The notes beneath the pieces are model-generated. The model saw only the letters and a list, made by a program, of their open reading frames with translations. It searched no databases and was not told where the DNA came from. Made by a program: the position numbers and the translations under genes. A DNA stretch of 64,000 nucleotides from Escherichia coli (GTDB taxonomy: Bacteria > Pseudomonadota > Gammaproteobacteria > Enterobacterales > Enterobacteriaceae): assembly GCF_003334385.1 (NCBI RefSeq), contig NZ_QOWN01000005.1; one strand, written 5' to 3'. Numbering within the stretch: position 1 is the stretch's first letter; each line of letters starts with the position of its first letter. Positions 47,165 to 47,380 of this stretch are shown here, one piece after another.

Positions 47165-47380
47165 TCTGATGCCGCACGTAGGCCTGATAAGACGCGGACA
47201 GCGTCGCATCAGGCATCTTGTGCAAATGTCGGATGCGGCGTGAACGCCTTATCCGACCTACAAAAACAAATTTATCAATGAGTTAGAAATCCCTTTAGGC
47301 CTGATAAGACGCGCCAGCGTCGCATCAGGCATCGTGTGCGAATGTCGGATGCGGCGAAAACGCCTTATCTGACCTACAGA
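47165..47380. repeat. REP/BIME cluster (about four REP units in alternating orientation) between yacG and mutT
   Basis: Repeated gatgccgcacgtaggcctgataagacgcg...gcatcaggcatc and tgtcggatgcggcg...acgccttatc(c/t)gacctaca units read from the sequence; the last unit overlaps the mutT 3' end. Confidence 0.8.

Follow-up and report, generated by a model that had tools for sequence, protein, structure and literature searches.

The region analysed here lies in a window of 64 kb (64,000 nucleotides of Escherichia coli DNA, the whole stretch under study), of which positions 46901-47850 are 100% identical to the reverse strand of E. coli K-12 MG1655 (NC_000913.3). Two genes, both taken from the ORF list and from the RefSeq annotation of identical DNA, converge on a gap of 215 bp. 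The first, yacG (46961-47158, + strand), encodes a DNA gyrase inhibitor of 65 aa and closes the coaE-zapD-yacG unit; its TGA stop occupies 47156-47158, and the first full REP unit is found 19 nt further on. The second, mutT (47374-47763, - strand), encodes the 8-oxo-dGTP diphosphatase of 129 aa, and its stop codon (47374-47376) falls within the fourth REP unit. An earlier note on this DNA had proposed yacG and mutT as convergent flanks of a REP cluster, and both the ORFs and the gene names in the 100%-identical RefSeq records agree with it. The REP region corresponds to K-12 coordinates 111430-111644. We also noticed that, along NC_000913.3 111044-111846, the locus tags skip from b0099 (mutT) to b0101 (yacG); presumably a former b0100 ORF call in the gap has since been withdrawn, as we infer from the numbering. 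REP-derived ORFs can be read in the gap of the window, for example one of 39 aa at 47162-47281.

REP units were searched for by edit distance to the Y, Z1 and Z2 consensus sequences, which are the same as those printed in PMC11208160 except for one base in Y, in the 64-kb window and in 50 shuffles of it. Results showed four units between yacG and mutT, lying 2, 2, 1 and 5 edits from consensus in the orientations -,+,-,+, and zero matches at ≤6 edits in the 50 shuffles. This confirms the earlier reading of about four REP-like units in alternating orientation, for which a REP consensus scan had been named as a check, and these units do match the consensus. A fixed-gap IUPAC pattern caught one of the four only, the other three being missed because loop lengths differ. 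The only other REPs in the window form a Y-Z1 pair at 20905-21004.

Unit 1 is a Z2 unit (47178-47215, - strand, reading GTAGGCCTGATAAG... on the + strand), 2 edits from Z2 and with a hairpin of -21.8/-21.3 kcal/mol. Unit 2 is a Y unit (47227-47261, + strand), 2 edits from Y (-19.2/-18.8 kcal/mol), in which a locus-specific stem, GTCGGA...TCCGAC, replaces GCCGGA...TCCGGC. Unit 3, again Z2 (47295-47331, - strand), is 1 edit from its consensus (-21.9/-21.4 kcal/mol), and unit 4, again Y (47343-47377, + strand), is 5 edits away, with a hairpin of -17.0 kcal/mol on the + strand vs -13.1 kcal/mol on the - strand, the weakest of all on the mutT strand. Each unit alone is predicted to form a hairpin with an internal bulge, over a range of -13.1 to -21.9 kcal/mol. 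GTAG/CTAC is present at the stem foot of units 1, 2 and 4, and unit 3 has TTAG. All four units are extragenic except for 4 nt of unit 4. Between the yacG stop and unit 1 there is also a truncated REP half, TGTCTGATGCCGCAC (47163-47177, + strand), a remnant of a Z-type 5' arm; the GCATCAGGCA arms of units 1 and 3 are its complement. Strain UTI89 carries TCTGATGCGACGCTGG at this position, which is the 5' half of Z2.

The units do not fill the intergenic region, as had been stated: two 11-nt linkers and a non-REP linker of 33 nt separate them, and the truncated fifth half is found at the yacG end. The short linkers join the units head to head, TCTTGTGCAAA at 47216-47226 being of the S type as defined in PMC3333891 and TCGTGTGCGAA at 47332-47342 being the second. 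The two resulting Z2-S-Y modules are direct repeats 116-117 bp apart, identical at 76/84 positions. The site holds fewer than two full periods, which is why Tandem Repeats Finder had no repeat to report in the window. Between the modules, tail to tail, lies the A/T-rich 33-nt linker (47262-47294). We considered whether it could be a dispersed BIME motif and rejected this, as megablast and blastn, at the sensitivity of blastn, find it in one place per genome, at this locus alone. It holds TATCAATGAGTTA at 47273-47285, which fits the IHF core consensus WATCAANNNNTTR exactly; the window contains six such matches vs 2.1 expected by chance, another of the six being in the BIME-1 L linker at 20940-20974.

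When the whole region was folded, it scored better than all of 200 shuffles on either strand (z = -4.6 and -6.1). Covariation was sought among 20 aligned units from the yacG-mutT site: no compensatory changes were found, and several copies have broken pairs. The lack of compensatory changes can be explained considering that the 20 units are too similar; support for the structure thus comes from thermodynamics and from the consensus, and its conservation is inseparable from recent common descent. No intrinsic terminator (hairpin plus U tract) was found on either strand of 47159-47373, the REP hairpins lacking a T run, and the promoter scan predicted none in the gap. Therefore, the four hairpins are the only obvious 3'-end structures for both transcripts.

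The overlap with mutT was examined at the level of single bases. On the mutT strand the gene ends CGT CTG TAG GTCAGATAAGG, the REP stem beginning one base after the stop, and the CCTAC tail of unit 4 is the complement of GTAG, that is, of the last base of the Leu129 codon and the TAG stop. The overlap in the window is thus 4 nt (47374-47377). The earlier note had the last unit running into the final codons of mutT: the overlap is real, but in the window it takes only the TAG stop and 1 nt. Its wording does hold for the 132-aa alleles of other lineages, where the overlap covers 13 nt (four codons and the stop). In O157:H7, UTI89 and E166, CTAC has become ATAC and hence TAG has become TAT, so that mutT is annotated with 399 nt and the protein ends ...KRVY(V/A)G, with a stop inside the REP stem that is TAA or, in E166, TAG.

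To count the stop alleles we used exact 34-nt probes on 5,426 complete E. coli genomes, the locus being matched in 5,426/5,426. The K-12-type probe was found in 1,787 genomes and a second type, that of strain S19-651, in 1,370, both giving a MutT of 129 aa; the O157-type and UTI89-type probes, both giving 132 aa, were found in 647 and 355 genomes, respectively. In 1,267 genomes none of the four probes matched and the length of MutT was not assigned. The stop-loss allele is therefore present in at least 1,002/5,426 genomes. In all other Escherichia species examined the stop lies inside the tail of a Y unit, which suggests that the 132-aa form is derived.

A comparable arrangement was observed outside the genus. 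In Enterobacter cloacae (our locus L068, 1590-1625) and Leclercia adecarboxylata (L041) the 34 nt between mutT and yacG are filled by a single Z1-like REP, GTAGGCCTGCTAAGCGAAGCGCCAGCAGGC, whose GTAG likewise supplies the TAG stop of mutT. A REP on the mutT stop is consequently ancient, or else it originated on more than one occasion.

The number of units was compared across strains, as the earlier note had advised, and across species, and it proved to be variable, from 2 to 6 (up to 8) in E. coli and from 3 to 10 in other Escherichia. Spanned lengths in E. coli fall into classes of ~803 bp (4 units), ~798 bp (4 units, with a diverged linker) and ~684-688 bp (2 units). A site can hold 2, 4 or 6 units; the linker count (up to three linkers per genome) points to as many as 8. 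Of the 5,426 genomes, 1,871 carry the K-12-type linker and 222 that of the E166 type, meaning that ~39% have at least 4 units; the ~60% that match neither linker probe have 2 units at every such site examined. O157:H7 and UTI89 have 1 module each and ETEC1730 has 3 (6 units in a 331-bp gap). Among other Escherichia, E. albertii (4.7 copies of a 115-bp period) and Escherichia sp. E1V33 have 10 units, or 5 modules, each, strain SCPM-O-B-8794 has 6 units, MOD1-EC7003 has 4 and E. whittamii has 3. The arrays of E. albertii, E1V33, SCPM-O-B-8794, E. whittamii and ETEC1730 share the locus-specific GTCGGA/TCCGAC Y stem; the linkers of these and of MOD1-EC7003 are homologous to that of K-12, and the IHF core is kept in 11/12 of the homologous linkers of other Escherichia species.

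Beyond the genus, the mutT-yacG gap of Salmonella is an unrelated spacer of 314-340 bp with no REP, as seen in S. enterica subsp. diarizonae (L011 1597-1910) and arizonae (L012). Citrobacter has 1-4 REP-like units in 58-173 bp and Enterobacter one palindrome in 34 bp, and in Buttiauxella and other genera the two stop codons overlap and there is no hairpin. The yacG-mutT gene order is conserved across Enterobacteriaceae and the Y/Z2 array is confined to Escherichia. From this comparison, the array is an Escherichia-specific tandem expansion of one founder module, of which the GTCGGA/TCCGAC Y stem is the mark. We also came across a MutT 80% identical to that of E. coli, with a Salmonella-like C-terminus, on contig QXHL01000193.1 (424 bp, coverage 0.83), filed under "Alicyclobacillaceae bacterium I2511"; it is probably an enterobacterial contamination of that assembly.

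The array is also a landing site for a mobile element. Unit 1 contains the exact natural target of IS621, ATCAGGCCTAC (11 nt with a CT core), unit 3 differs from it by one mismatch and the Y units by two. According to PMC11208160, 129 IS621 insertion sites matched the natural target sequence and a genome offers well over a hundred REP targets. In strain S19-651 an IS621 of 1,279 bp, with an annotated IS110-like IS621 transposase, sits in the first Z2 unit, flanked on either side by the AG (CT) core; the insertion point in such E. coli genomes corresponds to 47181-47182 of the window, at the GTAG / AGGCC junction, where the AG/CT core is then present twice. A probe of 90 nt spanning the junction of yacG, REP and IS621, for which a full match was required, was found in 181/5,426 genomes, including O26:H11 11368 and O103 strains; this is a count of genomes and not of independent insertions, inheritance and recurrence being inseparable in it. 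The general statement of the earlier note that BIMEs act as transposition targets is hence demonstrated at this very site.

Several other features were noted in the region. An IS1A splits the locus of the laboratory strain E. coli DTU-1 (NZ_CP026612.1) that matches 46961-47763 of the window, and mutT is annotated twice there; mutT thus appears to be interrupted by IS1 in this strain, which could make it a mutator. On the other side of mutT, the Rfam family STnc40 has a full-length match at 47778-47847 (- strand; 84 bits vs a gathering score of 45) that spans the secA 3' end and the secA-mutT spacer and is conserved in the loci of Escherichia, Salmonella, Citrobacter, Klebsiella and Enterobacter. 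It contains a strong hairpin-plus-U-tract terminator, AAAAGGCGCAGGAUUCUGCGCCUUUUUU, immediately upstream of mutT, which raises the question of how mutT transcription gets past it. Elsewhere in the window, Rfam PssrA ("plasmid-encoded Shigella sRNA A") matches 53494-53583 (- strand; 105.5 bits vs a gathering score of 69), in chromosomal DNA at ~K-12 105224-105313, and the Rfam sRNA candidate tp2 has a full-length match at 36580-36693 (+ strand; 103.4 bits vs a gathering score of 50).

BIMEs bind gyrase and IHF and stabilise mRNAs, general roles that the array between yacG and mutT may share. Taking all these observations together, we consider it probable, with good confidence, that a BIME-2 array that arose by amplification of a founder module serves here as a 3' untranslated region common to coaE-zapD-yacG and mutT, two transcription units that converge. 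The array arose when a single founder module was amplified locally in tandem, and as the site holds 2 to 10 units depending on strain and species, this amplification is still under way in Escherichia. Formed on either RNA strand, the hairpins would attenuate read-through, in a partly Rho-dependent manner, and would block 3'-to-5' exonucleases on both mRNAs. A two-way attenuator and exonuclease barrier for both mRNAs is, in our analysis, the most likely function, drawn from what is published on other REPs, and we hold it with moderate confidence. REP325 gives a precedent, being a partly Rho-dependent terminator and a stabiliser of the upstream mRNA (bioRxiv 10.64898/2026.03.23.713779). In the same study higher expression of both members of a convergent gene pair is associated, genome-wide, with a REP between them, terminal REPs have no genome-wide effect on mRNA half-life, and what the tables list for mutT and yacG is bulk expression only. 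As regards the locus itself, it is not mentioned in the gyrase Topo-seq and BIME supplements examined, the published IS621 insertion tables and the Term-seq and IHF ChIP supplements yielded nothing usable on it, and a literature search on yacG, mutT and palindromic sequences returned no papers.

The position of unit 4 deserves a separate consideration. Since it starts at the stop codon, the terminating ribosome must melt its stem, which could lower MutT output. According to Liang et al. 2015, as cited in PMC12306157, a REP within 15 nt downstream of the stop is reported to stall ribosomes and to lower translation, the class of translation-modulating REPs being one in which protein output drops through stalling and tmRNA; the distance between the REP and the mutT stop is 0, inside the ≤15 nt limit of Liang, Rudd & Deutscher 2015 as that article cites it. 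One could go further and suppose that the stop-codon REP and the array set the dose of MutT, through ribosome-hairpin interference and protection of the mRNA 3' end, so that Escherichia lineages with different variants could differ in their A:T-to-C:G mutation rate. Three kinds of variant may act in this way: the allele of 129 aa with TAG in GTAG, the GTAT stop-loss allele, whose product of 132 aa ends within the REP stem, and the number of units, 2-10. We regard this extension as very unlikely.

The same data could be read without any function. REP proliferation (RAYT/TnpA-REP) would have seeded the site, and slippage or unequal recombination would have multiplied selfish or neutral repeats that are tolerated in a convergent gap. 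This is a possibility that we take seriously, while thinking it rather doubtful as a full account. Sites in Escherichia have 2 to 10 units and those of E. coli alone 2 to 6-8, a variation that is known in general for tandem BIMEs, whose number differs between strains (PMC3333891); Salmonella does without a REP at the site, and Buttiauxella and other genera do with overlapping stops free of hairpins. From these facts it follows that no particular array is required for yacG or mutT function. Covariation is lacking, pairs are broken in several units and the GTAG is lost in some of them, as in unit 3 (TTAG) and in the GTAT alleles. On the other hand, at least two or three units persist in every Escherichia species examined, and in all of them the mutT stop is precisely where one unit lies, a REP being found on it in Enterobacter and Leclercia as well; the gap contains no other terminator. 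Moreover, a neutral origin and an acquired role at the 3' end are not mutually exclusive.

Two further readings place the function of the array elsewhere. Considering that gyrase cleavage sites in vivo are enriched in BIME-2 elements, with a preference for Y units (PMC6379681), that the linker carries an exact IHF core, a putative site kept in nearly all homologous linkers, and that convergent transcription meets in this gap, the array might act mainly at the DNA level, its Y units as a strong gyrase site and its linker as an IHF bend, absorbing the positive supercoils of convergent transcription, possibly with a link to yacG. We think this unlikely: gyrase cleaves only a subset of BIME-2 elements (PMC6379681), and the gyrase supplements examined are silent on the yacG-mutT locus. 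The suggestion that a gyrase-binding BIME-2 is functionally coupled to the gyrase-inhibitor gene beside it is unlikely too, because the gene pair is Enterobacteriaceae-wide and the array is found in Escherichia only. The other reading starts from Rfam naRNA4 (RF02564), which matches both Y-S-Z2 pairs on the - strand, that is, in mutT sense, at 47181-47258 (78.4 bits vs a gathering score of 59.5) and at 47298-47374 (77.8 bits vs the same score), as it does all pairs at the site in other Escherichia species. Read-through mutT transcripts would then be processed to Y-S-Z2 RNAs of ~77 nt with two hairpins, which would associate with HU and compact the chromosome, as originally proposed for naRNA4 (PMC4550694). 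However, RF02564, whose model derives from REP325, recognises in effect any Z2+Y BIME-2 pair, so that a match shows class and not function. In addition, a recent study found for REP325/naRNA4 no measurable nucleoid compaction, no stable HU-DNA-naRNA4 complex and no REP-REP contacts (bioRxiv 10.64898/2026.03.23.713779), and the gap has no predicted promoter. We hold this reading highly improbable.

We thus retain the shared 3' untranslated region as the preferred interpretation, and both the observation and the interpretation of the earlier note were essentially right. The discovery value is small, as arrays of the REP/BIME type belong to the textbook picture of E. coli and this one is present in the K-12 reference. 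What the locus offers is four known REP behaviours in one place, namely tandem expansion and contraction (2-10 units), donation of a stop codon, stop-loss into a hairpin, and insertion of IS621, be it recurrent or inherited. As mutT is an antimutator gene, it is also a convenient test case for asking whether stop-proximal REPs tune protein output in nature.

In conclusion, the array is an already known kind of element, located in the reference genome, and it can be compared with several known systems. As far as its units and linkers tell, it is of the BIME-2 type, with two tandem Z2-S-Y modules joined by the 33-nt linker: y and z2 units that alternate in orientation, are joined head to head by a short linker and are repeated in tandem correspond to the definition of BIME-2 by Bachellier and Gilson, as summarised in PMC3333891, where variable tandem BIME number between strains is given as a general property. 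Like BIME-2 elements, it has alternating y and z2 units, an 11-nt head-to-head linker and tandem copies that differ in number by strain, its copies resemble each other within the locus, and it lies between convergent genes. Unlike them, it has a 33-nt linker that blastn did not find elsewhere in E. coli genomes and that could not be assigned to the named s, l or r motifs. As the IHF core is a hallmark of the L linker of BIME-1, the array could also be filed as an "atypical" BIME.

BIME-1 (RIB/RIP) is indeed the second system to compare. The window contains one at 20905-21004, between convergent ORFs ending at 20867 and 21069, made of a Y unit (+ strand, 1 edit) and a Z1 unit (- strand, 0 edits) with an L linker of 35 nt between them, in which the IHF core reads AATCAATGGATTG. 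The central part of the yacG-mutT array resembles this arrangement, with Y, linker and Z tail to tail, an A/T-rich linker of ~33-35 nt and WATCAANNNNTTR at an equal offset. It differs in that the partner is z2 and not z1, the consensus scan having found no Z1 unit at the site, in that the linker apart from its core is unlike the L motif at 20940-20974, and in that its module is tandem whereas BIME-1 is single. As a target of IS621, an IS110-family element with a bridge-RNA recombinase, the array does not differ in kind from the natural REP targets.

A further system to compare is REP325 (yjdM-yjdN), the archetypal BIME-2 and the source of naRNA4. Both share the y-S-z2 module, a score above the Rfam naRNA4 threshold, the tandem array and the 3' untranslated position. 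In REP325 itself a 100-bp unit is repeated 5.8 times, the tail-to-tail linker measures 17 nt and lacks an IHF core, and the S sequence is another one; the genes on its two sides are arranged in tandem and it does not overlap a stop codon, and the yacG-mutT array differs from it in both respects. The array between yacG and mutT is therefore the same kind of element as REP325, with linkers of its own.
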